Assembly: GCA_024653325.1 (NCBI GenBank) | Contig: JANLFX010000005.1 | Span: 1-64,000 of the forward strand | Length of the DNA stretch: 64,000 nucleotides | Direction of reading: 5' to 3' | DNA from: Anaerolineae bacterium | Lineage (GTDB): Bacteria; Chloroflexota; Anaerolineae; JACIWR01 | The notes under the pieces: generated by a model | The model's database searches: none | The model's input: only the letters and a program-made list of their open reading frames with translations | Told to the model about the DNA's origin: nothing | Made by a program: the position numbers and the translations under genes | Shown: piece after piece, positions 4,756 through 23,164 of the stretch | Numbering within the stretch: position 1 is the stretch's first letter | How the letters are laid out: each line of letters opens with the position of its first letter

Positions 4756-5679
4756 TTAGGCGGCCAGCGCCCCGGCGATACGGGCAGCAATGGCCGCGTT
4801 GTTTTCCAAAAGGGCCACGTTGGCCTGCAGGCTGTCTCCCCCGGTAATTTCCGCGATGCGGGCCAGGAGGAACGGGGTGATGGCTTTACCCCGGATGCCC
4901 TGCTCTTCGGCGGCGGCCAGGGCCTGAGCGATGGCCATTTCCATCACCTCAGCGGGGAGCTCGGCCTCGGCGGGCACGGGGGCGACGATCAGCACCCCGC
5001 CACCCAGTCCCAGGTCCCAGCGGGCGCGGATAATCTCCGCTGCTGCCTGCGGGCTGTCTACCCGCGCGTCCACCGGCAGGCCGCTGGAGCGGGTATAAAA
5101 GGCCGGGAATTCATCGGTGCCGTAGCCGAGCACCGGCACACCCCAGGTCTCCAGCCACTCCAGGGTAAGCGGCAGGTCGAGGATGGATTTAGCCCCGGCG
5201 CAGACCACGGCCACCGGCGTGCGGGCCAGTTCCGGCAAATCGGCGGACACGTCGAAGGGCTGACCGCGATGGACCCCGCCGATGCCCCCGGTGGCGAAAA
5301 CTTTGATCCCCGCCTGAGCCGCGATCCACATCGTCGCTGCGACAGTCGTCGCCCCGTCGCCACCCTGGGCAACGACGATGGGCAGGTCGCGGCGGCTGAC
5401 CTTGCGGATATTTCCTCCTCGGGCCAGGCGTTCCAGCCCAGCATTATCCAGTCCTATCCTCAGCCGCCCGCCGAGCACAGCGATGGTCGCCGGGGTGGCT
5501 CCCTCGGCGCGGATCACCTCCTCCAGCCGGTGCGCGGTCTCCAGATTGGTGGGAAAGGGCAGGCCGTGGGCGATAAGGGTGGATTCCAGGGCAACCACGG
5601 GCCGGCCGGCTTTCAGGGCTTCCTCGACCTCTGCTTTCAGGACGAGCCAATCTTGCGCGGGCTTTTTGAGGAGTGTCAT
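4756..5679 (-). CDS. psuG: Pseudouridine-5'-phosphate glycosidase
   Basis: 'PVVALESTLIAHGLPFPTNLETA...VLGG' and the rest match the PsuG/IndA family. The ORF-track N-terminal extension to 5775 is unlikely; the internal Met abuts the upstream gene's stop. Confidence 0.75.
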   Translation of the reverse strand: MTLLKKPAQDWLVLKAEVEEALKAGRPVVALESTLIAHGLPFPTNLETAHRLEEVIRAEGATPATIAVLGGRLRIGLDNAGLERLARGGNIRKVSRRDLPIVVAQGGDGATTVAATMWIAAQAGIKVFATGGIGGVHRGQPFDVSADLPELARTPVAVVCAGAKSILDLPLTLEWLETWGVPVLGYGTDEFPAFYTRSSGLPVDARVDSPQAAAEIIRARWDLGLGGGVLIVAPVPAEAELPAEVMEMAIAQALAAAEEQGIRGKAITPFLLARIAEITGGDSLQANVALLENNAAIAARIAGALAA

Positions 5680-6878
5680 TAGCCCTCCACTTTTTGTAGC
5701 GCCGTCTCTTTGGGCGGTTTGACCTCGGTCAGCTTGGGCAACCCTTCTTCCCTTATCGAGAGGATATTTCCCCATTCATCGGCCACTACCTTCCACTTGC
5801 GCTCCTCGCGGACAGTGATGGTGTTTTTTCCATCCCCGGTCGGTTTGTATTCGGGATCACCGTAGTGGGCAAATAGAATTACCACACCGCTGGTCGGTCT
5901 GCGTTCCATCTCCAGCAAGCGTAACGGGGTTTTATCGCCCAGCTTGCGCTGCGCCGACTTGGTGATGACCCGCACCAGGCGGTCTTCGTGGGCGAAGACA
6001 GGTTCTGGCAACTGCATTGTGCCGTCCAGGTATGCTGCGTATTGTTGCGCGGCCCCCAAAGCAAAGGCAAGGGAAAAGAAGATAAATATGCCGCTGTACA
6101 TCAGGGAATTCAGCAGCCGGCTGTACCCTTCGTCTTTGTACGTGGCGATGAACACCAAAGCCAGCGCCAATGCGGCCACCAGGGCTGCGATCATGATCAA
6201 AATCGGAGAGGGTCGGAGACCTTTCTTCACCCGCCGGCCCCACGAGTAATCGCGTAACTTGCCTTTCAACGAATAAGAGAAAAACACTATCAGGCAGGAC
6301 AGGAAAACGGCTAAGACTGTGCTCACGCCGATGGAGATGTACGGGCCCAGGCTCCGGCGCGCGAACGGGGAGACCAGCGGGGCCAGGGCGAAAATGAGGG
6401 CCAGGACACCCGGAAAATTCAGGAAAAAACGCCGCAACCGGTCTCCACCGCCCTGGGCGGACAGAGCTCGCGCTCCGCTGTTATCCGCTCCGCAGAAGGG
6501 GCAGATGTTTTCTTTGTGGTAGGCGATTGTCCCCCCCGCCTTGCACACCGGACAGCGCGCGTTATCCAGGTTCCAATCGGCCCGTTCTGCCCCGCAGCGT
6601 GGGCAGATGCCCGATTTGATGAAATGGTCAGTGTTATCCGCCCCGCACTTCCGACAGAGCAGCCGCCCATCGGGCAGTTCCTGGTAGCTGATCACGGCCT
6701 CGGCTTTGCAGCCAGGTTGGGGACAGCGGGCCTTGAGCGCATTCTCCGGCTTGAGGTCCGCGCCACAGCGGGGGCACCGGTTGTGTTGGGCAAACCAGGC
6801 AGTGTTGTCGGTGCCGCAGTGGCGGCAATAGAAATGACCGGTCAGGTATTCCCGTTTGCAGGAAAGACAGGTGGGCAT
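5679..6878 (-). CDS. Membrane protein with four N-terminal double zinc-ribbon repeats and a C-terminal soluble domain
   Basis: Repeated C-x2-C...C-x2-C pairs ('CLSCK..CRHCG', 'CPRCG..CPQPGC', 'CRKCG..CPRCG', 'CPVCK..CPFCG') are followed by about 4 TM helices and a roughly 110 aa C-terminal domain. Lies directly downstream of an SPFH gene. Confidence 0.5.
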   Translation of the reverse strand: MPTCLSCKREYLTGHFYCRHCGTDNTAWFAQHNRCPRCGADLKPENALKARCPQPGCKAEAVISYQELPDGRLLCRKCGADNTDHFIKSGICPRCGAERADWNLDNARCPVCKAGGTIAYHKENICPFCGADNSGARALSAQGGGDRLRRFFLNFPGVLALIFALAPLVSPFARRSLGPYISIGVSTVLAVFLSCLIVFFSYSLKGKLRDYSWGRRVKKGLRPSPILIMIAALVAALALALVFIATYKDEGYSRLLNSLMYSGIFIFFSLAFALGAAQQYAAYLDGTMQLPEPVFAHEDRLVRVITKSAQRKLGDKTPLRLLEMERRPTSGVVILFAHYGDPEYKPTGDGKNTITVREERKWKVVADEWGNILSIREEGLPKLTEVKPPKETALQKVEG

Positions 6879-6946
6879 GGGTTGTTACCTCCGTGTGGCG
6901 GCGCTAAAGGGTACACTTTGGTCAGACGGCGGGCTGGAAGCCCGCT

Positions 6947-8530
6947 TTACTCTGATTTTTCCATGTGTTCCGTGATGTCGCGCAATTCCCCAGGGCCAAG
7001 CAAACCCTCTTTGCCCTCGCTGATGAACAGGGCTTTGGCCCCGGCACTCTTGGCCATTGCTTCCAGCGCCTCAATATAGCGGGTGGCGATCACATCATCG
7101 GCGACAACGTTGCGCGAGAGTTGCTCGAATGCGCGGATGAAACGAATACTCACCCCGTCGGGCATGCCGGTGAGTATGTTGACCATCCGCTCTATTTGAT
7201 CCACCATTTCCGCACTGGCTTTGCTCCTGATTCTCTCCAGTGCTCTGATAACTCGGACCCTGCTTTCACCTTCCGCCTCAGCTTCCTCCAACTTGATCTT
7301 GGTCTTCCATTCCGTCTCCCACACCGCCAGCATCTGCTGGCGGACCTCGTCGGGCATCTGGATCATCCGCAGGTCCACGCCCCCATATTTGACCCCCCAG
7401 TTGAGGCAGAGTTTCTCCAGGACCTCGTTGGCCCGTTTTTCAATTTGCTCGATAGTGCGCTGATTGGTCGGGAAAAAACCTTCCGGCGTGGGCGTGCCGG
7501 ACAAATCAAAAATCTGGTCGAGATCATAAGTGAGGATAATGTCGCGGATAATGGACTCGGAAGCGCCGGGGACGGTGCCCTGCCAGCCGAACTCGGTCAC
7601 GTTATACACCGCTTTGCGGATGGTGGCCTCGTAAACCGGATAGGGGTCCTTGCTGATCAGGGGAGAGAGGGCTTCGCCGTCGGGGGGGATGTGGCTTTCG
7701 GGGCGGGCATCCACGTCCTTTTTCGATTCGATCTGGAAGCTGACCCCCAGGGCCAGTTTCAGCGGCACCCGGTCACGGGTAAGGACGTTTTCCGCCTCGC
7801 GCAGCACCCACTGCGGTCGCAGGTCCACAATGGCTTTGAGCACCTCCGCGCGTTTGGTGATGACCACCCCCGGCCCAGCGATACGGCTGATTGTGCCCCC
7901 GCGCTCGAAAACCACGGCGTTTCCAGGGCGGATGATCACCTTGCCGGGCCCTCCCAGGAATTTCATCAGCCCTCCCACTTTCCCTTTGAGTTCCTTTCCG
8001 TCCACGATGGTAGCGGTGAGGTAATTTGAGGCGAAAATCAGGCTGAAAAGCAGGCGCAGGGCTTCACCTCTGCTGATTTTGAAAGGTTCCTGGTGCAATC
8101 CCAGGATATACTCAGAACTGACCCACATCACGGTCAGGAGAGGGAGGCCGAAAATAGCAATGGCCGCCGGGAAGGCCACGAGAAAAAAGCCCACGATCCA
8201 TTGCAAGGTGCCCTCGGTGATTTCGTCACCGAATTTTTGGTTGATGAGGTCTTTGACCGGCAGACTCAGCACCAGGGCCAGGCCGAGGATCAGAGAGATG
8301 GCAAACATGATGCGCTGGGCCTTTTCATTGGGGAAGGACCAGCCCAGGAAAATCAAGCTAAGCGCCAGGATAGGTGTACCCACCCAGCGGTTGTTGATGA
8401 TCATGCCGATGATGGTCAGTATCAGGCAGATGAGGGCTTTGAGAAAGAAAACCCGCGTCTTGGATACCTTTTCCTCTTTCGGCCCCTCCAGGCTCTCGAT
8501 TTCGTATGTCATCGCCAGCCTCCTCCACAC
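6947..8530 (-). CDS. SPFH/band-7 (stomatin/flotillin-like) membrane protein with long C-terminal coiled-coil region
   Basis: N-terminal TM helices, then core 'KVIIRPGNAVVFERGGTISRIAGPGVV...LTRDRVPLKLALGVSFQI', which matches the SPFH domain. Confidence 0.55.
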   Translation of the reverse strand: MWRRLAMTYEIESLEGPKEEKVSKTRVFFLKALICLILTIIGMIINNRWVGTPILALSLIFLGWSFPNEKAQRIMFAISLILGLALVLSLPVKDLINQKFGDEITEGTLQWIVGFFLVAFPAAIAIFGLPLLTVMWVSSEYILGLHQEPFKISRGEALRLLFSLIFASNYLTATIVDGKELKGKVGGLMKFLGGPGKVIIRPGNAVVFERGGTISRIAGPGVVITKRAEVLKAIVDLRPQWVLREAENVLTRDRVPLKLALGVSFQIESKKDVDARPESHIPPDGEALSPLISKDPYPVYEATIRKAVYNVTEFGWQGTVPGASESIIRDIILTYDLDQIFDLSGTPTPEGFFPTNQRTIEQIEKRANEVLEKLCLNWGVKYGGVDLRMIQMPDEVRQQMLAVWETEWKTKIKLEEAEAEGESRVRVIRALERIRSKASAEMVDQIERMVNILTGMPDGVSIRFIRAFEQLSRNVVADDVIATRYIEALEAMAKSAGAKALFISEGKEGLLGPGELRDITEHMEKSE

Positions 8531-8667: not shown

Positions 8668-8967
8668 TCATTGTTCATTAGTCATTGACTCGTTGAAGCC
8701 TTCCGTGGCCTCGTCTTCCCACCCTTCCTCCGGCTCAGCGGCCAGCACCGCCTGGGCGTCTTCGGCCAACGCCTCGGGCACCATGACCCGCACCTCGCCC
8801 AGGCCGTCCACGGTGATGCCCAACACCGGGCCGGCGCTTTCGTAATCCAACAGGGCCGGTATGCCGGCACTTTCCAGTTTGCTTTTGATTAGCTCGGCCT
8901 GTAACAGCCCCTGAGTAGTGTATACTGTGGTCAGACCCGGGCGGTGAATTTTTCTGTGAAACAACAT
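8668..8967 (-). CDS. DUF2007-like small protein (putative signal-transducing, PII-like fold)
   Basis: 99 aa with an acidic C-terminus. Pattern 'TVYTTQGLLQAELIKSKLESAGIP' resembles the DUF2007 family. Confidence 0.4.
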   Translation of the reverse strand: MLFHRKIHRPGLTTVYTTQGLLQAELIKSKLESAGIPALLDYESAGPVLGITVDGLGEVRVMVPEALAEDAQAVLAAEPEEGWEDEATEGFNESMTNEQ

Positions 8968-9010: not shown

Positions 9011-9502
9011 TTAGGTACTCGTTTCAGTAACGTCGGCCACCTGCCCTCCGGTCACCTGTACCAGCATTTCGTAGCTGATGGGAAACAGGGCATTAGGCGC
9101 GCCAGCCGCAGCGTACAGGGTCTGAAAGCGATGCAGGCTGTCATCAATAATGGTACGCAGGGGTGGCTCGTGGCCCACTGGCGGCACCCCACCGATGGCA
9201 AATCCGGTCTTCTGGCGTACGGTGTCCGCGTCGGCGATCATCACCCGCCTGGCGCCGAGCAACGATTTGAGTTTGCCCGGGCTGGCCCGCCGGTCGCCGG
9301 CAACGAGGACCAGGATGGGTTGGTCGTCGGCCAGAAAGATGAGCGATTTGACGATGCTGCCCAGGGGCGCGTGCATGGCCTCTGCCGCTAACTGGGCAGT
9401 ACGGGTGCTCTCGCCCGCCAATTGCAGAACCTCGATGCCCAAACCTTTGTCTTTCAGGAAACGTCGCACTCGATCCACGGAACTCATTGGCGCATCCTCC
9501 AA
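9011..9502 (-). CDS. ybaK: YbaK/ProX-type aminoacyl-tRNA deacylase (Cys/Pro-tRNA editing)
   Basis: 'VKSLIFLADDQPILVLVAGDRRASPGKLKSLLG...GFAIGGVPPVGH' is the YbaK/EbsC family signature. Confidence 0.7.
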   Translation of the reverse strand: MEDAPMSSVDRVRRFLKDKGLGIEVLQLAGESTRTAQLAAEAMHAPLGSIVKSLIFLADDQPILVLVAGDRRASPGKLKSLLGARRVMIADADTVRQKTGFAIGGVPPVGHEPPLRTIIDDSLHRFQTLYAAAGAPNALFPISYEMLVQVTGGQVADVTETST

Positions 9503-11121
9503 CGGAAGAATTTGATCAGCTTCTCGCGCAACTCGTCGCTGCTGGCGTATTCAATGTACTCCATCCCCGCCAGATCGGTGGGCACTTGACTGCGTTTGTC
9601 CTTGACGATCACCGTCTCTTTACTCAGACCATAGGCCAGACCCAGCTCGAACAACACATTGGGATTCCAGTCCGAGATGTTGATCACGGCGTAGCGCGAG
9701 CTTTGAATGCCCTCGCACACTTTGCACATCACATCAATGTTGCTGATGGCGTCCGACGCTCGCCAGGGGTACAGGCCCACAGCTTCCAATGCCGGAATGA
9801 CTCCATACTTGTATGCATCGGCAAATTCGGGGCGGAAAGGCATGCCGATAAACACCTGATTCGGATCGAGCACGGGGTTCTTGGGACAGGTCGGGCTACC
9901 GGTTTTGAAGCAACGCATCTCCTCCTCCAGTACCAGCTCTCCGCTGGTGATAGGCGGCATTTCCAGGATCGGGGTTTCAAATCCGGTTGTTTCGGTGGGA
10001 TGAATCCAATGGCGGATGGCGCTCATCACCCCACGGCGCTCGGATTTCGGTTCGGTAGTCAATCTCAAGTAGGGTTCCAACACCTGGGCGTAGATGGGAT
10101 TGCGCACCTGGCAGTAGGTGTCCTCGCGGATGACGCCGATCATCTCAAGCTGGGAGATGATGGGATTGTTACGGCTGAAACGTACCTGGCGTCCCTGTTG
10201 GACGATTTCGCGCAGCAGGCTTTTAGCGTCCAGGTCCAGTTCCAGTTGGCGGATGATGTGGCTGAGGTTATCATCCCCCTGGAGCATCAATTCCACGGCA
10301 TCATCCACGTGGGCCGGAGTGAGTACCGGCAACGACTGGCGCTCCAGGATGACGCAGATACGTTGGGTCAGGTAAGGATGCCCTCTGGCCTGCTCGTAGA
10401 TGCGGTCAGCAAATTTGTCCTGAATCCTTGCTCCGGTATGCTCGAAGTTGCTCACCAGGCGGAACACGTCCTCGCGGCTGAAATCCTTGAGGTATATTTT
10501 TTCGCAGATGTTAAGCGGGGAGTTCAGCCCGAAGGTCAGCAGGTACAAGTCCACTGCCCCGCAGAACAGGAACAGGTATTTACGGAAAATCGGTTCGGTG
10601 CCTTTAGCGCTGTTGAACACCGCGCGGATAGTGTTAAAGAAGCTGTCTGACACCTCCGGAAGCAAAGCTCCCACCTCGTCCAGCATGACTATGATGCGCG
10701 GCGAGGGTGTGCGTTCGGCACTATCGCGCAGGAAGTGCAAGAAGTCCACCGGCCCTTTGATGATGGGACGCTCTTCAGGCCAACCTTCTCCTCCCCGACT
10801 GCGCAGCGCGTTGTGAATCTGCGTGCTGACATAGCCGTAACAGGCGGCCTCATCCTGGTTGCGCAGCACCGAAAGGTCAATGAGCACCACCGCAAAGTCG
10901 GCAGCCAGTAACTCAGCACGGGCATGGTAAAGCAATGTGGTTTTACCCGTCTGACGCGAGCTGAGGAGGGCGATGTAGTTAGAGATGGTGGTCTGGGTGG
11001 ACAGGCGTATGATCTCCCGCAGTTCTTCGCGTTCAACGGTAATCGCCCGGTCTCGTTCCGGGTCCAGAGGTCCCCGGGCTTTGAATACCCAATCTACTGT
11101 CAAGTCCCCCCCAATGCTCAC
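9484..11121 (-). CDS. P-loop NTPase (Orc1/Cdc6-like 'archaeal ATPase' fold) with C-terminal TIR/nucleoside-2-deoxyribosyltransferase-like (SLOG) domain
   Basis: Walker A 'SSRQTGKTTLL', Walker B 'IIVMLDEVGAL', sensor-like 'GHPYLTQ'. C-terminal ~145 aa 'QVFIGMPF...YAVINISDWNPNVLFELGLAYGL' has the TIR/NDT-type beta1 and catalytic-Glu motifs. GTG start with an AGGAG RBS, 1 nt after the upstream gene's stop. Confidence 0.6.
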   Translation of the reverse strand: MSIGGDLTVDWVFKARGPLDPERDRAITVEREELREIIRLSTQTTISNYIALLSSRQTGKTTLLYHARAELLAADFAVVLIDLSVLRNQDEAACYGYVSTQIHNALRSRGGEGWPEERPIIKGPVDFLHFLRDSAERTPSPRIIVMLDEVGALLPEVSDSFFNTIRAVFNSAKGTEPIFRKYLFLFCGAVDLYLLTFGLNSPLNICEKIYLKDFSREDVFRLVSNFEHTGARIQDKFADRIYEQARGHPYLTQRICVILERQSLPVLTPAHVDDAVELMLQGDDNLSHIIRQLELDLDAKSLLREIVQQGRQVRFSRNNPIISQLEMIGVIREDTYCQVRNPIYAQVLEPYLRLTTEPKSERRGVMSAIRHWIHPTETTGFETPILEMPPITSGELVLEEEMRCFKTGSPTCPKNPVLDPNQVFIGMPFRPEFADAYKYGVIPALEAVGLYPWRASDAISNIDVMCKVCEGIQSSRYAVINISDWNPNVLFELGLAYGLSKETVIVKDKRSQVPTDLAGMEYIEYASSDELREKLIKFFRWRMRQ

Positions 11122-11122
11122 A

Positions 11123-13156
11123 CTAAAGCTTTCTCCTCAGGCTATCCACCAGGGTCGGCATGTCCTGGCTGGCTTTGATAACCTGCGGGAATCCCTGGTT
11201 AGCGAACTCATAATACTGCCCATTCTTGCGAATGATGGAGTAAAGCACCAGGTCACGGATTGCTTCTTCCAGGTCTGCCTGAGGGACAGCGACTTCGGCC
11301 CTGGTGAGGAAAGTCTCGATGTCCGCCAGGGTGGAGGGCCCCTGGTCAATCATTAGCAGGGAGACGATTTTCTCCAGAGCCGTGGCGTTGCCCCAGGTGA
11401 CCTCGGTAAAGTACTCGCTGAATTGGCTGGAATTGCGCACCGCCTCCAGGTCGGCCATGGTGATCCGCCGCGCTCCCCGCCGATTGATCTGGATGATGAG
11501 CCTCTGGCAGATGTATTGCACGATGTTGGGATGGCAGGAGGAAAGGTCCATGATCTCCCGCACCAACGCTTCCTGGTCCTCCAGCATGATGCCCATAGCC
11601 TGCATGGGTTCCAGGATAATGCGACGGGCGGATTGTTCATCCAGGTAGCTGAGATGAATGGTGTCGCAGAAGTTGAACAAAGGTGAATCGGGAGCGTGCA
11701 GGCGGGTGTACAATATACGTTCGCCGCAGAAGACAAAACGACAGTACTGCTCCTGTGAGAGAGCACGGAACACGCGGAACAGTTTCTCCTGGGATAGCAG
11801 GTCGTAACTCAACAGGGCATCTATTTCGTCAAGGAGGATGATCACTGTCCCCCTGGCCCAATCGTTGTTCAGTTGGGTGATCAGGCGGCGGAATCCATCG
11901 GGCGAAAAGCTGGGCAATTCGACCTCCCACATGGATTGTACCGCCTCAAAGAAACCGTCATAGTCGGTCACGGCTTGGCAGTCCAGGTACAGGGGAAAGA
12001 AATCAGGGGTTTCGCTCAGCAGGCGGTAAACCTTGGCCAGGATGGAGGTCTTGCCGATTTTGCGCCCTCCGATGAGGGCGAAGCTGCAGTCTTTCACCTT
12101 GCGGGTTACGGTTTTCAGTTCGTTGTCGCGGCCAAAAAACATGTTTTCTGGGACAGGCCCCGAGGTCACGTATGGCGAGACGGCGTTCAGGTCTACCTGG
12201 CTCAGGATAATCTGAATCAGGCGTTGTTCGGGATCGCGGGCCATGATGATCTGCCGCAGGTCACTGCCGTCCAGCACGATTAAATCGTGGATCGCGCCGC
12301 GCACCAGGTATTTCAGGTTCTTACGTTTATCCAGTTGGGAGGGCCAGTCGTTCAGATCAATGAGCAGGGCGAAGTAGCTGGTCATGTTGAGGATGTTCAT
12401 CAGGCTGCGCACATCGCTGATGTCCTCGGGGCTGAACTCGCGCTTGCGCAGGAAGATGATGGGAAAACGAGGCGGGACACGCAGGCGCAGGGCGGGCGCT
12501 TTTACCACATAGCCGTGCAGGTCGCGATAAGTACGGGCATCCAGCATGGTGAAGCCCAGCATGTCACAAAGCAGGGAAGCCAGCATGGCGGCAATGGTCT
12601 GGAAAGTAGCCTCGCTTTCCACCGTCTCCCAGGCTGCTTTCCAGTTACGCAAGAAGGTTTTCATTCGTTTGGGGGAGGCCAGCTCGATGCGGGGCGGGTC
12701 CAGACGGAAAACCAGGTCGTCATCGGGGCGCTCTTCCACAAAGCGGCGCATCGCCTCGCTGCGTTCTTTGAGGGGAATATCCAGCAACATGTCTTCTTCC
12801 ACCCGGCCGTGTACCCACAGTGCCTGACGGATGGCGTTTTCCCAGGCTGCCCAGCGGGTTTCTTTGGAACTCCGCCATGAGGGGCTCTGTCGCCGCCGGC
12901 TCACAAGGATGATCAGGAGAAGTAAAATGGCGATAGAGACCAGGAGGAGAAGCGATACCGGCCAGGTAAGGAGGTCGGACAACGATGGGAAGAGAAACCC
13001 GTTTTCCAGTAGAAAACGGGTTTCCGAAATGAAAGCAGATGGCGCATCACTCTGTTGCCAGACGATGGTCTCTTGAGCGTGTAGTGGGATTGACCGGTGG
13101 GCCAGGGCTGATGCGACGTTAAGCGCCGCCGGTGCCAGGCAGGTTATCCCGGACAT
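11123..13156 (-). CDS. Membrane-anchored P-loop NTPase (STAND/Orc1-like), paralogous partner of the downstream ATPase
   Basis: N-terminal hydrophobic segment 'WPVSLLLLVSIAILLLLIILV', about 230 aa of unknown domain, then 'FFGRDNELKTV...IGGRKIGKTSIL' (Walker A) and 'VIILLDEIDALL' (Walker B), with a C-terminal winged-helix-like tail. Confidence 0.6.
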   Translation of the reverse strand: MSGITCLAPAALNVASALAHRSIPLHAQETIVWQQSDAPSAFISETRFLLENGFLFPSLSDLLTWPVSLLLLVSIAILLLLIILVSRRRQSPSWRSSKETRWAAWENAIRQALWVHGRVEEDMLLDIPLKERSEAMRRFVEERPDDDLVFRLDPPRIELASPKRMKTFLRNWKAAWETVESEATFQTIAAMLASLLCDMLGFTMLDARTYRDLHGYVVKAPALRLRVPPRFPIIFLRKREFSPEDISDVRSLMNILNMTSYFALLIDLNDWPSQLDKRKNLKYLVRGAIHDLIVLDGSDLRQIIMARDPEQRLIQIILSQVDLNAVSPYVTSGPVPENMFFGRDNELKTVTRKVKDCSFALIGGRKIGKTSILAKVYRLLSETPDFFPLYLDCQAVTDYDGFFEAVQSMWEVELPSFSPDGFRRLITQLNNDWARGTVIILLDEIDALLSYDLLSQEKLFRVFRALSQEQYCRFVFCGERILYTRLHAPDSPLFNFCDTIHLSYLDEQSARRIILEPMQAMGIMLEDQEALVREIMDLSSCHPNIVQYICQRLIIQINRRGARRITMADLEAVRNSSQFSEYFTEVTWGNATALEKIVSLLMIDQGPSTLADIETFLTRAEVAVPQADLEEAIRDLVLYSIIRKNGQYYEFANQGFPQVIKASQDMPTLVDSLRRKL

Positions 13157-13276: not shown

Positions 13277-15454
13277 TCAATGGCACGATGGCGGTTCTGA
13301 CTCGCCGCCGGGTATGCTCCAACCGGCACCATTGGTTGCTGAGTTGCCATGCCCGTCCACCACGCGGATACGGAGGTCTATATAGCGCGCGCCGCAACGG
13401 GCGTGTATCTGGAACACCGTGCCCTGAGTAGAGCCCTCGTTCCAGTAAGTGGTATAATTTCCGTCCCCACCGGTCACCCGGACGTGGATGGTGGCTATCC
13501 AGTCTCCCGGGTAGTAGTCGGACTTTTGGGGCCGTTCCACGAATTCCCAGTACTGAATGGTGAGGGGTTCAAAGGTGGGCGCGGGTGTAGGTGTATCGGT
13601 CGCCGTCGGTGTGGGGGTCCTGGTTGGCGGGATGCGGGTATTGGTCGGTGTGGGGGTAGGTGTTGGCGTGTCCGTTGGGGTGGCGGTGGCAGTGGGCGTG
13701 TTGGTCGGCGTCGGTGTGTTCGTTGGCGTGGCTGTGTTCGTGGGGGTGGGGGTAATGGTCGGCGTCGGCGTGCGCGTCGCCCACACCAGGCCGCTTCCGG
13801 CAGCATTGGCGTTCCACTGCTCTTTTTCCTCGTCGGACATAGGTTGCGGGCCTTCCGGAGGTTGCCCCGGTATCAGCTCTAATTGTTGACCGGCCGCCAC
13901 TTCGATCTCCTGGCCCTCTGCGCTCACGTGGCCGGTCCCTTCGTCTACCGAAACCAGAGCCGAGCCATCGTTGGCCACAGCTACCCCGAAACGCCGGTCA
14001 CCCCACACTTTTGCCCCCGATTTGGTTTCCATGTACAACGCCGGGGTACCGGTTTCGGTCTCACTTTCGATTTCCTGCACCCAGACACGCCCGGTTTCCA
14101 GGATGAGGGCAATTTGGTTGTTGCCTTCCTCATCCTTCACTTGGTTTACGGTCAGGGTGCTGTTCGCTCCCACCCGCACTTTGCGCCCATCCAGCTCCAA
14201 TAGGGCTGTGGCTTCGTCACCGGTGCGCACTTGCCCGCCGGGATGGATTTTCATGCCCACGGCCGCTCCGCCCCAGGCGTCTTCGGCCCGCGAGCGGGCC
14301 TGGATGACTTCCTCGTTCATGAGGTCACTGACCACTATACTCATCTCTTGGGCCGTGGGAGTGCTGGGACGCAAGGTTGGCACGACTATCAAAGCCAGGG
14401 CGCCAAGAATGACCAGCAGGAGTATTACGCCACCAATGATGCCCCCGATAGCCAGAGGAGAGGTTCGTCGCGCTGCTGGAGCAGCCACCGGGGCATAAAC
14501 CGTTGCTCCGGCGGGTGGTGTCTCACCGATAACGGTGGCCCCCTCCTTTCCGGGAATTGGACCGACCACCGTGGTCGCCTCAGGCGGCAATGCCTCTATC
14601 ATACCCCGGCCTGCACAGGCATCAGCCAGGGCCTCAGCCATCTGAGTGGTGCTTTGGAAGCGATCCTCGGGACGCTTGGCCAGGGCTTTGAGGATGACCC
14701 GTTCCACGGCCTCTGGGATGTTGGGGTTGATGGCACTGGGTAGGGTAAGCGGGTCCTGCACGTGCTTGAAAATCACGGCCAGCGGGGTATCGGCACTGAA
14801 GGGGGTCTGACCGGTGAGCATTTCATACAAAACCACGCCCAGAGAGTAGATGTCACTGCGGTGGTCAATCTCCAGGCCCTGGCCTTGTTCTGGCGACATA
14901 TACTCAGGCGTGCCTACCACTCCGGTCATGGTGAAGCGAGTGCCCTCGACCATGCGCGCAATTCCGAAATCGGAGAGCACGGCCTCACCATCGGAGGTAA
15001 GAAGAATGTTGGCGGGCTTGACGTCACGGTGGACCATTCCCCGCTTATGGGCGTAATCCAAAGCGGAAGCGACAGCCTGAATAATCCGTTGCGTTTCTTC
15101 GAGGGACATGGTCTGACCGGCTTCTTTCAGTTCCCGTAGCCTGGCCTTGAGGGTCTGGCCGTCAATGAACTCCATGACCATGTAGTATATGTTGTTCTCG
15201 CTGCCGAAATCGTAGACCTGGACGATATGGCCGTGGCGCAATTTGGCCACTGACCGGGCCTCATGCTGGAAGCGGGCCAGGAATTGCTCATCCGTGGCGA
15301 CCATAGAATGCAGAATTTTGATTGCCACGTAGCGGTCCAGAGCGGGTTGATAGGCCTTATAGACTTCGGCCATGCCGCCTTTACCCAACTGAGCGACGAT
15401 GCGATATTGTCCTAGAGTTCTGCCGATCATGTCCATGTGTGCACCTCCATGCAT
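13277..15454 (-). CDS. Hanks-type Ser/Thr protein kinase with TM helix, FecR-like extracytoplasmic domain, Pro/Thr-rich linker and C-terminal beta-rich domain
   Basis: '[12 protein letters not shown]...VAIKIL', '[11 protein letters not shown]', 'DFGIA' and '[10 protein letters not shown]' place it in the Hanks kinase family. One TM helix; '[11 protein letters not shown]...LETGRVWV' is FecR-like. Confidence 0.8.
13560..13800. repeat. Low-complexity Pro/Thr-codon repeat (encodes the TPTPTNT... linker of the kinase)
   Basis: Direct repeats of ggtgt[a/g]gg[t/c]g on the plus strand; encodes (T-P-T-N/D/A)n. Confidence 0.6.
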
Positions 15455-17882: not shown

Positions 17883-19472
17883 TCACTGTCCTCGCAGTTT
17901 CGCCCTTTCCTGTCTGAGGGTCGGATCGGTTTCACGAAAAGTTCTGACCTGGTTGCCGCCATAGTGTTTGGCCATGTACATCGCGTCGTCGGCGGCATCA
18001 ATCAAACTCGAAGGGTCCTGCGCGTCATCAGGATAAGTGGCCACCCCCAGGCTGAAACGGACGCCGGGCAAACCATGGTTTTCCTGCAAGTCCAGGGTGA
18101 CCATGTCAGTTACCCAAATCAGCAGATCATTGGCAATCTGGATGGATTGGGTAGCGTTCACTCCAGGCAGGATGACCATGAACTCGTCGCCACCGTAACG
18201 GGCCACTAGCCCTTTCCATTCCTGGGTAGCTACTTCCAGGGATCGAGCAATGCTTTTCAGCACCTGATCACCTTTGGAGTGGCCATAGCTGTCGTTGAAG
18301 TTCTTGAATTTATCTACCTCAATCATGACCAACGAGACGGGTTGGCGCGTCGCCTGGGCCTCGCGCAAGGTCTGGCGCAGGCTGTCCTGAAAATAGCGGT
18401 GGTTGTACACATTGGTTAAACCATCCAGGTTGGCCATGCGTTGCACTTGATTGTGCAATTGCGCGTTTTCAATAGCCAGAACTGCCGACTTGGCTAAATT
18501 GGAAAGGACCTCTAAATCATTGGGCTCTATCCTGGCCCGGTCATCGCAATCAACGACCAGGACCCCCACTGGCCTTTGTTCTCCCTTCAGAGGGGCGGCG
18601 ATCTGTAACATCGGCCCCTGGGCCATCAGCGGTGAACCTTGTGAACCATCCACGATGAAAGGCCGGTTTTTTTCGATGATTGCTGCAAAAAGGTCCCTAT
18701 CGAAGTGCAACGGGGGTAGAGGAGAAAAGGTGTCCCGATAGCTGTGATAGCTCTCATAAGGGAGGTCTCCTGTTTTGCCGTCGGTGGTGAGGAGCAGCGC
18801 TGCGCGGCGGAAACCGAGGACCTTGGTCGGGACCTCGGCGATGTTCTGCAACGTGTTTCCCGATTGCAGGTCATACACTGCCCGTTCCAGTTCCTGCAAA
18901 ACTGCCAGTTCGGTGAGCTTTCGCTCCAGGTTCTCGGCGTGTTCCTGGCTGTCCTGAATATGTTCCAGTACCCGGCCCTTAAGAGCAAGGGATAGCGCGG
19001 CAGTGCTTATAATCAATCCCCAGGCGGGGATTATCTGCCCAATCACGTCGAAATCTTTGAACCAGAAAATGACCAGTCCACTGGTCAGCACGCCGGCTGT
19101 CGCTGCCACGAGGATGGTTTTCCAGGGGCCGAAACACAGTGCAGCGCCGGCTATGGCCAGCAGGTACAGAATGACATAGGTGGTAATCGGGCCACGCAAG
19201 CCGAGGATGATGGCCGTGATTAACACGCAATCCAGCACGGTAGTGGCACAACGGAACCAATCTGGCAGTTCACGATGTCGCCCGGAGAAATAACTCGTTG
19301 TAATGGTGAACAACACAGCAACGCCCCACGCTGCCCAGCCCATCATCTGCGTCGCCGGGTCGGGACTGGTGAGCAGGAACAGCGCCGCCAGGCCGATGAT
19401 GGCCCAGTGAGCCAGGTGCAGCTCATGCCAGAAAGCGATTGTTTGAAGAGCGGAGGTAGTTATTTTCGCCAC
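17883..19472 (-). CDS. Membrane-anchored GAF-GGDEF diguanylate cyclase
   Basis: N-terminal TM helices, then a GAF-like region. 'RYGGDEFMVIL' and 'DGLTNVYNHRYF' are GGDEF signatures. Confidence 0.8.
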   Translation of the reverse strand: MAKITTSALQTIAFWHELHLAHWAIIGLAALFLLTSPDPATQMMGWAAWGVAVLFTITTSYFSGRHRELPDWFRCATTVLDCVLITAIILGLRGPITTYVILYLLAIAGAALCFGPWKTILVAATAGVLTSGLVIFWFKDFDVIGQIIPAWGLIISTAALSLALKGRVLEHIQDSQEHAENLERKLTELAVLQELERAVYDLQSGNTLQNIAEVPTKVLGFRRAALLLTTDGKTGDLPYESYHSYRDTFSPLPPLHFDRDLFAAIIEKNRPFIVDGSQGSPLMAQGPMLQIAAPLKGEQRPVGVLVVDCDDRARIEPNDLEVLSNLAKSAVLAIENAQLHNQVQRMANLDGLTNVYNHRYFQDSLRQTLREAQATRQPVSLVMIEVDKFKNFNDSYGHSKGDQVLKSIARSLEVATQEWKGLVARYGGDEFMVILPGVNATQSIQIANDLLIWVTDMVTLDLQENHGLPGVRFSLGVATYPDDAQDPSSLIDAADDAMYMAKHYGGNQVRTFRETDPTLRQERAKLRGQ

Positions 19473-19852
19473 AGTAAGTATCCAAAAACCGTGCGGTTGA
19501 CCTATGCCATTTCGTGTGTATTCATTTTAGCACACTTGGTCAGATATTTCAACCCTTTGCTCTGGGAGAGATGCATTTCACTTTGGGGGCGAGTTGCTGC
19601 TGTGCCCTGGCCGCGGAGACCTCTCCCAGCCCCCCAGAATATGGTAGGCGCGGTTTCTTACCGCGCAACCCCGGTCACGACAGTGGGCCTGCGCGGTGCT
19701 GGGGGCCGTCGGCCGCGCTATGGAAAGCGCTATCCCAACTTCGCTCAGGGCGCAGCCCTTCGCTGGGCTCAGGGCGCAGCAGCGGTCGGCCGCTACGGGA
19801 CAAACCTGCCCCGAAACTGAAACGCACCCCTATGGGAGAGTGCATTTCAGAA

Positions 19853-19884
19853 CGGGTAGCCGACGGCACTGCCATCGGCTGCCC
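19853..19884. repeat. REP-like palindrome family C (GGGTAGCCGACGGCA-n-TGCCGTCGGCTACCC type), preceded by 'gcatttca' box
   Basis: 'gggtagccgacggcactgccatcggctgcccc' carries G·U-compatible mismatches. Related copies at 26515 and 43122. Confidence 0.5.
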
Positions 19885-19960
19885 CGTCCCGTTTCTCACC
19901 ACTCTTGACAGCGGAGGACCATTGTGCTATATTGAGCGCATAAACTTCGAGGTGGTCTGG

Positions 19961-23164
<3,204 letters not shown>

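Follow-up and report, generated by a model that had tools for sequence, protein, structure and literature searches.

An AAA_35 ATPase tethered to a TIR/deoxyribosyltransferase-like domain and encoded next to a paralogous membrane ATPase in an Anaerolineae bacterium

ATPase-gated glycosidases of the TIR type, which act on NAD+ or nucleotides, have a central executioner role in the immunity and programmed death of bacteria, plants, and animals. The design, an ATPase or sensor switch joined to an NAD-cleaving effector, is known from TIR-NLRs, Avs-TIR, Cap12 TIR-STING, and TEP1 TeTIR. A gene on the minus strand (9484..11121) of a 64,000-nucleotide stretch of Anaerolineae DNA (assembly GCA_024653325.1, contig JANLFX010000005.1, positions 1 to 64,000; here called the window) raises the question of what its C-terminal domain does and what part the preceding ATPase plays in it. 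The gene is complete (545 aa plus stop), and its product is identical (100%) to a protein listed at NCBI as an AAA-like domain-containing protein of an Anaerolineae bacterium. We found that it is a STAND/ORC-class ATPase of the AAA_35 family tethered to a domain of the TIR-DrHyd superfamily, that is, a domain resembling the nucleoside deoxyribosyltransferases (NDTs). Because of a putative four-cysteine zinc site, we refer to this domain as Zn-TIR-like.

A sequence-only reading of this DNA had quoted a C-terminal peptide and called it a SLOG/TIR-like domain. The peptide is indeed there: it forms the last ~148 codons of an intact 545-codon open reading frame (ORF) on the minus strand, positions 9484-9930 being aa 398-545 plus the stop codon, and the C-terminal end of the ORF reads ...NQVFIGMPFRPEFADAYKYGVIPALEAVGLYPWRASDAISNIDVMCKVCEGIQSSRYAVINISDWNPNVLFELGLAYGLSKETVIV.... 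The TIR/DrHyd-superfamily N-glycosidase-like domain with its Cys4 elaboration covers aa 404-545 (9487..9912, minus strand, as are all other elements of the gene). In Pfam, aa 486-526 match PF10137 (CAP12-PCTIR_TIR; E=8.7e-6) and score 26.2 bits, the gathering cut-off being 24.7. In PADLOC, weak matches only (TIR-effector, PycTIR, and PDC-S35; 19-27 bits) fall on aa 487-537, and the NCBIfam matches to Cap12 lie far below the cut-off. Since the matches from Pfam, PADLOC, and NCBIfam agree, the domain is real and not a chance motif. A sequence search of the PDB with the whole protein gave nothing significant; Cap12, NDT, and Rcl were reached by profiles only, the family profile matching the Cap12 TIR-STING structure 7un8 with E=3e-4.

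The AlphaFold2 model of aa 402-545 (10 homologs) had a mean predicted local distance difference test score (pLDDT) of 85.5 and a predicted template modeling score of 0.83, with the topology b1(419-426)-aA-b2-aB(462-474)-b3(475-481)-aC(487-498)-b4(502-508)-b5-aD. This fold is flavodoxin-like, as had been anticipated, and its best matches are NDT and TIR structures. Foldseek ranked CtNDT first (E=8e-6), and Hydra TIR, SPARTA TIR, DNPH1, BcmB, and SARM1 followed at ~1e-4 to 1e-3, with LOG and ThsA-SLOG structures ranking lower. The TIR half of the earlier label, better worded as TIR/NDT-like, is thus supported by Foldseek and by PF10137, while its SLOG half was too loose. We rejected a SLOG identity, as the domain shows neither a Gly-rich nucleotide-binding motif of the SLOG type nor a closest match to LOG, ThsA-SLOG, or DprA. 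We then compared the gene with four orthologs (83-87% identity). The ratio of nonsynonymous to synonymous substitution rates (dN/dS) was 0.02-0.06 in the TIR-like domain and 0.06-0.08 in the ATPase, rising to 0.19-0.31 in the linker, values that are approximate because dS is ~1. The TIR-like domain is therefore under strong purifying selection, with a dN/dS as low as or lower than that of the ATPase.

A conserved glutamate in an FELG motif of the third helix had also been predicted, and we found it as E492, which is Glu in 152 of 156 family domains and lies in alpha-C. It belongs to the motif N486-P-N488-V-L-F-E492-L-G494 (9640..9666), which leads from the end of beta-3 into alpha-C. In the profile alignment to the SfSTING Cap12 chain (E=3e-4), 'pNVlfELGlayG...vPtDLkG' runs against 'DNVVFEFGLFLG...LPTDLDG', so that E492 is paired with SfSTING E84, N488 with N80, N486 with R78, and D516 with D110. 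E492 was also aligned with CtNDT E88 (which PDB entries 8pqq and 8pqs carry in mutated form) and with the Rcl/DNPH1 catalytic Glu, and N486 was aligned with CtNDT D82. These alignments are in good agreement with the earlier proposal that this glutamate would be an active-site residue. According to Morehouse et al. (2022, PMC9402430), catalysis in SfSTING depends on E84, the phosphodiester and the ribose are coordinated by R78 and N80, and the opposite TIR subunit inserts its D110 to complete the active site; for this reason the NADase is switched on when filaments form. In all these enzymes the catalytic Glu is located in alpha-C (PMC9402430). The equivalent of the D110 loop in the window protein is P514-T-D516-L517 (9571..9582), between beta-4 and beta-5. 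The model is less confident there (pLDDT ~62 at D516), as would be expected of a mobile loop acting in trans.

Across 148 family members, conservation reaches at least 90% at N486, N488, V489, E492, and G494, and Y525 is also nearly invariant. In the closer homolog set, M-P428-F429, D463, K507, D516-L517, and E521/E524 are likewise invariant. The position six residues before the Glu is an Asn in the window protein and in at least 90% of the subfamily, an Arg in SfSTING, and an Asp in NDTs (CtNDT D82, LlNDT D92), where it binds the sugar hydroxyls. Judged by alignment, the domain keeps with E492, N488, and D516 the elements that make Cap12/SfSTING-type TIRs NAD+ glycohydrolases.

While right on the core of the protein, the sequence-only reading had overlooked D516 as a candidate trans-acting Asp, the paralogous membrane ATPase encoded upstream, and a four-cysteine site. 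C404 and C412 (RCFKxGxxxCPK, 9886..9912) are N-terminal to beta-1, C466 and C469 (MCKxC, 9715..9726) lie in the first turn of alpha-B, and all four are invariant in close homologs. Among 147 scorable domains, both pairs were present in 125, neither in 19, the first only in 3 (one of them a window-edge miss), and the second only in none (Fisher p=4e-21, uncorrected for phylogeny). This co-variation argues for one Cys4 metal site. The four cysteines probably bind a single zinc ion, and the site would then staple the N-terminal extension to alpha-B and to the region equivalent to the BB-loop of TIR domains. We defined the Zn-stapled TIR-like subfamily by two motifs, CxxxGxxxC ahead of beta-1 and CxxC or CxxxC where alpha-B begins, and the window protein has both.

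The predicted fusion to an N-terminal ATPase was confirmed, aa 29-346 matching AAA_35 (PF14516) with E=3e-16. In the full-length model (pLDDT 85.1), aa 7-358 (10048..11103) form a compact STAND/ORC-class P-loop ATPase module (pLDDT >90) made of a nucleotide-binding domain, a helical domain, and a winged helix; aa 361-408 are disordered (<50), and the TIR-like domain follows. The flexible linker between the two (aa 359-403, 9913..10047), which combines low pLDDT with high dN/dS, is only 39-50% identical among orthologs, and it is modeled as a disordered tether of ~45 residues joining the ATPase to the TIR-like domain. Walker A (LSSRQTGKTT, aa 53-62, 10936..10965) retains RQTGKT in 56-57 of the 57 homologs with a residue there, and Walker B (IIVMLDE, aa 143-149, 10675..10695) retains D148-E149 in 57 of 57. 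AAA_35 homologs show little or no variation in these two motifs, in an NSPLN motif, and in the G-H of a GHPYL motif that resembles GxP, and the ATPase is therefore probably active. The P-loop nucleotide-binding domain, the helical domain with its GxP-like motif, and the winged helix correspond to a STAND ATPase. A repeat-type sensor (TPR, WD40, or LRR) was not found in the window protein, in which the winged helix is followed only by the linker and the TIR-like domain. We found no mention of PF14516 in the literature searched.

The same ATPase core carries other modules elsewhere. The nearest AAA_35 proteins, all from Chloroflexota and 41-53% identical in the ATPase, have an N-terminal CHAT protease (many proteins, ~900 aa), a C-terminal Mrr_cat nuclease, a C-terminal domain with two transmembrane (TM) helices (four proteins), or nothing at all (~350 aa). 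The CHAT (caspase-like) fusion, seen for instance in two loci with products of 913 aa (L005 and L006 in our numbering), is the commonest in Chloroflexota, and the AAA_35-Mrr_cat fusion was found once, in a 532-aa paralog. The Zn-TIR-like domain, in turn, occurs C-terminal to REC (21 of 148 members), GAF, PAS, HEAT, CDC48_N, Prok-RING, YukD, and nSTAND1/2 modules, and also in tandem pairs behind a helical region. The exchange of modules on AAA_35, taken with the C-terminal placement in these fusions, indicates that the TIR-like domain is an output or effector module.

Next to this gene, and upstream of it, lies the gene of a 677-aa single-pass membrane ATPase (11123..13156, minus strand). This partner is of the AAA_22/nSTAND1 type (Pfam AAA_22 E=1.4e-9, nSTAND1 E=1e-4) and is a paralog of the AAA_35 ATPase (26% identity, E=3e-8). 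It has one TM helix at ~aa 62-88 and a short ectodomain, the N-terminus being outside by the positive-inside rule. A membrane ATPase gene is located immediately upstream (1 nt away or overlapping) in 6 of 6 orthologous and 5 of 5 CHAT-less paralogous loci, and genes for CHAT-AAA_35 and bare AAA_35 proteins stand without a partner ATPase. The local four-gene block recurs in four orthologous contigs (L001-L004), and L015 and L016 share the ATPase pair. More distant loci with a membrane ATPase followed by an AAA_35 gene (L009, L010/11, L012, L039, and L040) all lie just downstream of dnaE, and their partner proteins are 1250-1300 aa long (L009 2166-5999, L010 2265-6026, L012 2228-6004, L039 994-4905, and L040 1055-4960). 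In two of the three that we analyzed, a signal peptide, a BNR/sortilin beta-propeller of ~640 aa, a TM helix, and an AAA_22/nSTAND1 ATPase follow one another; no TM helix was detected in the third. These partners have the look of receptors, with an extracytoplasmic sensor attached to a STAND-like ATPase. The AAA_35 protein itself ends in a two-TM domain in three of the five distant loci. The recurrence of the pair and the variation at its ends identify the conserved unit as a two-ATPase cassette, with an extracytoplasmic part on one protein and an exchangeable C-terminal module on the other. As a separate observation, the dnaE gene upstream of the cassette in L040 (1-587) contains an intein (Intein_splicing and LAGLIDADG_3 Pfam matches; 1586-aa product).

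To see how widespread the domain is, a word-indexed search returned 12 relatives only, while an exhaustive profile search over 1.84 billion cluster representatives returned 20,539 at E<=1e-3, 6,206 at E<=1e-10, and 106 at E<=1e-30; the more than 6,000 members at E<=1e-10 are counted as 50%-identity clusters. Of 148 members scanned, 81 match PF10137 (E<=1e-3), 51 PF05014, and 5 TIR_2, a split that places the subfamily between Cap12-type TIRs and deoxyribosyltransferases. Scans of GTDB genomes and JGI metagenomes gave 24 and 32 loci, respectively, with hosts among the Anaerolineae, Aminicenantes, Clostridia, Nitrospirota, Lentisphaeria, Bathyarchaeota, Thermoproteota, ANME-1, Methanosarcinales, and Aenigmarchaeota. 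Among the viral contigs of IMG/VR the search turned up no relatives, and the only matches to PHROGs were weak ones to families of unknown function; a phage origin was therefore rejected.

Among 116 neighbor genes from ~40 non-redundant loci, the families that recur are adenylosuccinate-synthetase homologs (6), NUDIX (5), deoxynucleoside kinases (2), and thymidylate kinases (2), as well as helicase (ResIII/DEAD), Eco57I/HSDR_N/N6_N4 methylase, and DUF4391 restriction-type genes and DUF4062. The subfamily thus occurs both in nucleotide-metabolism operons and in defense-like neighborhoods. A conserved four-gene operon is present in L028, L032 (4476-7867), L033, L034, and two metagenome loci, where NUDIX is followed by a Zn-TIR-like protein of ~325-335 aa with a PUA-like part (weak match), an adenylosuccinate-synthetase homolog (PF00709, E=3e-152), and a deoxynucleoside kinase. 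This operon looks like a nucleotide modification or sanitation pathway, reminiscent of PurZ-type pathways, and the part of the TIR-like domain in it would be that of a nucleotide N-glycosidase or transferase. Elsewhere, three proteins of ~600 aa have a helical/TPR-like N-terminus and two tandem Cys4 TIR-like domains. Two paralogs of such double-domain proteins occur within one block in L013 (3361-9794) and L019 (526-6654), in the order GluRS, double-domain protein, radical SAM, AlaX-like (tRNA_SAD+DHHA1), double-domain protein. In a bathyarchaeotal locus (L018, 5116-6429), one protein directly joins the substrate-recognition domains CDC48_N and CDC48_2 with the Zn-TIR-like domain; its gene has a divergent DUF4062 gene upstream and an AAA_15/AAA_21 ATPase close by.

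We propose that the upstream paralogous membrane-anchored ATPase would be the sensor subunit and that an envelope cue would lead to ATP-dependent co-oligomerization of both ATPases. The tethered TIR-like domains would thereby be gathered into composite active sites, as in SfSTING, and would cleave an N-glycosidic bond, most likely that of NAD+ and otherwise that of a related nucleotide. The outcome would be metabolic or growth arrest, cell death, or a signal, in a context of conflict or programmed death. We lean slightly toward this overall picture, in which ATP-driven oligomerization activates an N-glycosidase at an envelope cue. Within it, the PF10137-type motifs and the effector position suggest NAD+ as the leading candidate for the substrate, a choice about which we are evenly divided.

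In this picture zinc binding, catalysis, substrate, oligomerization-dependent activation, trigger, and biological role are all inferred, as is, from adjacency and paralogy, the interaction between the two ATPases. Several observations weigh against the proposal. The match to PF10137 spans only positions 76-118 of the 119 of the profile; positions 1-75, which include the NAD-stacking residues of beta-A/alpha-A, do not align to the window protein, whose N-terminal half looks rather NDT-like by its sequence and carries the Cys4 elaboration. The closest structural neighbors are deoxyribosyltransferases and nucleotide hydrolases, not NADase TIRs. Since N486 stands in place of SfSTING R78 and of NDT D82/D92, the substrate contacts differ. 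PF05014 is matched by 51 of the 148 subfamily members, and the NUDIX, PurA-like, and deoxynucleoside kinase setting of six related loci speaks for nucleotide rather than NAD+ chemistry there. Furthermore, none of the PADLOC system models matches either ATPase, and the cassette is chromosomally syntenic beside dnaE in several Anaerolineae, with no obvious mobile defense island.

Part of this evidence would suit an enzyme with the same architecture and ATPase gating and another small-molecule target, namely, a DrHyd-type N-glycosidase or transferase (as NDT, DNPH1/Rcl, and MilB) acting on (d)NMPs, modified nucleotides, or ATP/dNTP pools instead of NAD+. Besides the PF05014 matches in the subfamily, the profile matches, albeit weak, that align the Glu with NDT, Rcl, and DNPH1 sequences, the beta-1 motif GMPF, which is similar to the (S/G)P.F of NDT, and the six independent loci in which the domain lies between NUDIX, an adenylosuccinate-synthetase homolog, and a deoxynucleoside kinase all point in this direction. 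The window protein itself, however, reaches 15.8 bits on PF05014 (Nuc_deoxyrib_tr), below the cut-off of 28.8. Its N-P-N-V-x-F-E motif has an Asn at -4 like Cap12 N80 and lacks the NDT Asp (D92/D82) at -6, and its PxDL trans-Asp loop is common to PF10137 TIRs and not to NDTs. In addition, effector slots that are elsewhere swapped with proteases, nucleases, and membrane domains usually hold NADases (PMC9503650). We regard a target other than NAD+ as a serious minority possibility, roughly one chance in a few. Membership in PF05014 was rejected on the score and on the missing sugar-binding Asp, the NDT fold with its nucleophile Glu being present.

Two further explanations would leave the ATPase-gated cleavage of a small molecule aside. 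The domain might be non-catalytic, serving as a nucleotide-binding sensor or as a homotypic TIR-like adaptor that regulates the ATPase; sensor and adaptor versions are known in the TIR/DrHyd/SLOG clade (PMC9503650), and the subfamily is often fused to signaling modules such as REC and GAF. We consider this unlikely, given that the Glu is nearly universal and N488 and D516 are also kept, that the domain takes the output position in REC, GAF, and PAS fusions, that it is interchangeable with nuclease and membrane modules on one ATPase core, and that its dN/dS is very low. Alternatively, the domain might be an N-glycosidase directed at the 3' ends of tRNA or aminoacyl-tRNA and working together with the translationally coupled YbaK-like deacylase encoded downstream. 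The ATGA overlap with this tRNA_edit gene, which is kept in L001-L004 and L009, would fit, as would unrelated members that adjoin AlaX-like and GluRS genes (L013 and L019) or RtcB and archease (L035). Yet tRNA-related families are singletons among the 116 neighbors, and the tRNA_edit gene also stands behind a paralog with a TM end (L009) and is absent from L010, L012, L039, and L040. It therefore tracks local synteny and not the TIR-like domain, which makes the link to tRNA the least probable of these explanations, and by a wide distance from the proposed cleavage of NAD+ or a related nucleotide.

How does the window protein compare with known systems? Membership in PF10137 in the strict sense is marginal: the score exceeds the cut-off and the catalytic motifs are there, and the N-terminal half is unmatched. 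With the CAP12/Pycsar TIRs (SfSTING 7un8, PycTIR), the protein shares the fold, the alpha-C NVxFExG motif, the Asn at -4, the PxDL loop, and, by analogy, activation of the effector through assembly of the attached module. Unlike in these TIRs, only the C-terminal third of the Pfam profile is matched, R78 of SfSTING is replaced by N486, and four conserved cysteines that Cap12 lacks are present in the N-terminal extension and alpha-B. Moreover, Cap12/Pycsar TIRs are activated by a cyclic-nucleotide sensor (STING/SAVED), a role that would fall here to a P-loop ATPase, with no cyclase gene adjacent. Membership in CBASS, Pycsar, Thoeris, or Avs was rejected, as the PADLOC and NCBIfam matches to the TIR-like part are weak and the ATPases have no PADLOC match. 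Neither a CD-NTase or pyrimidine cyclase with a fused sensor nor a ThsA-type partner adjoins the gene, whose neighbors encode the paralogous ATPase, the YbaK-like protein, a DUF2007 protein, and a Ser/Thr kinase. In the case of PDC-S35, short (~255 aa) family members match weakly in their N-terminal helical and C-terminal TIR-like parts, the scores being far too low for membership in the PDC-S35/CBASS TIR models.

The NDT/DNPH1 (Rcl)/MilB-BcmB group (PF05014, the 'DrHyd' of Burroughs and Aravind) resembles the domain in the aligned nucleophile Glu, in the beta-1 motif, and in that part of the Zn-TIR-like subfamily sits in nucleotide-metabolism operons. It differs in that the window protein scores below the PF05014 threshold and has an Asn at -6, the Cys4 site, and the PxDL loop, and in that these proteins are free metabolic enzymes, whereas the window domain is fused to an ATPase. 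We also compared the protein with STAND-TIR immune proteins, that is, plant TIR-NLRs (WRR4A/RPP1), bacterial Avs/NLR-like proteins with TIR or SIR2, and TEP1 TeTIR (bioRxiv 10.64898/2026.09.21.753143). In contrast to these, its ATPase is of the small AAA_35 type, nearest to archaeal PABY2304 and SSO1545, and has no C-terminal repeat sensor; its effector is C-terminal on a long disordered tether; and sensing is apparently delegated to a separate, paralogous, membrane-anchored ATPase. What is new relative to the known design is thus the cysteine-stapled subfamily, the AAA_35 chassis, the paired membrane 'sensor' ATPase, and the swap between membrane and TIR-like modules.

A broader reading of the locus can be offered tentatively. 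It might be an envelope-spanning, receptor-like pair of paralogous STAND-class ATPases, consisting of a membrane-anchored subunit, whose extracytoplasmic part is a large BNR/sortilin propeller in sister lineages and a short ectodomain here, and a cytosolic 'executor'. The C-terminal killing module of the executor would have been exchanged during Anaerolineae evolution between a membrane-inserting two-TM domain and the zinc-stapled TIR/DrHyd glycosidase. If this is true, the pair would be for bacteria what sensor/helper NLR pairs are for plants, seemingly inherited vertically beside dnaE in filamentous bacteria and not as part of a mobile defense island, and its effector would belong to a previously undescribed, metal-dependent branch of the TIR superfamily. 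Regardless of this, a large and barely annotated subfamily extends across bacteria and archaea between TIR NADases and deoxyribosyltransferases, and its apparent structural zinc site near the BB-loop region could be a new regulatory handle. The small STAND-like AAA_35 family behaves like a chassis on which protease, nuclease, membrane, and TIR-like effectors can be interchanged, and two ATPases with an extracytoplasmic sensor suggest outside-in activation of a cytosolic glycosidase. If confirmed, the system would be a tractable model for paired STAND proteins that split sensing from execution and would provide a new enzyme family for NAD+/nucleotide chemistry.

The genes of the block are tightly packed on the minus strand. 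The GTG start of the TIR-like gene lies 1 nt past the stop of the upstream partner gene, with a GAGGAG Shine-Dalgarno sequence 11 nt upstream, and its stop codon is overlapped (ATGA) by the ATG of the YbaK/ProX-type tRNA_edit gene (9011..9487; Pfam tRNA_edit E=1e-27). A gene for a small DUF2007 protein (8668..8967; Pfam E=1.7e-9), retained only in close orthologous loci, is the last of the co-directional block. No second TIR-like or AAA_35 gene and no tRNA gene were found in the window. The TIR-like gene is overlapped by a 387-aa antisense ORF (9487-10650, plus strand), which is unsupported as a gene and merely shadows the GC-rich coding strand.

Other genes of the region have their own features. 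A Ser/Thr protein kinase (13277-15454, minus strand; Pkinase E=4e-55) is encoded 120 nt upstream of the partner ATPase gene, an adjacency that is not kept in orthologous loci. The kinase has a TM segment and a long low-complexity stretch rich in Pro and Thr, which gives rise to several spurious long ORFs on the two strands (13349-13889). Some 7 kb away from the TIR-like gene, a gene for a GAF-GGDEF diguanylate cyclase (17883-19472, minus strand) is divergent from that of a 1216-aa SNF2-family helicase with DUF3670 (19514-23164, plus strand); no link between this gene pair and the TIR-like gene was found. On the other side (5679-8530, minus strand), a membrane protein that contains multiple double zinc-ribbons (DZR) comes before a multi-TM SPFH/Band-7 protein, and the two may form a membrane-scaffold pair downstream of the studied block.

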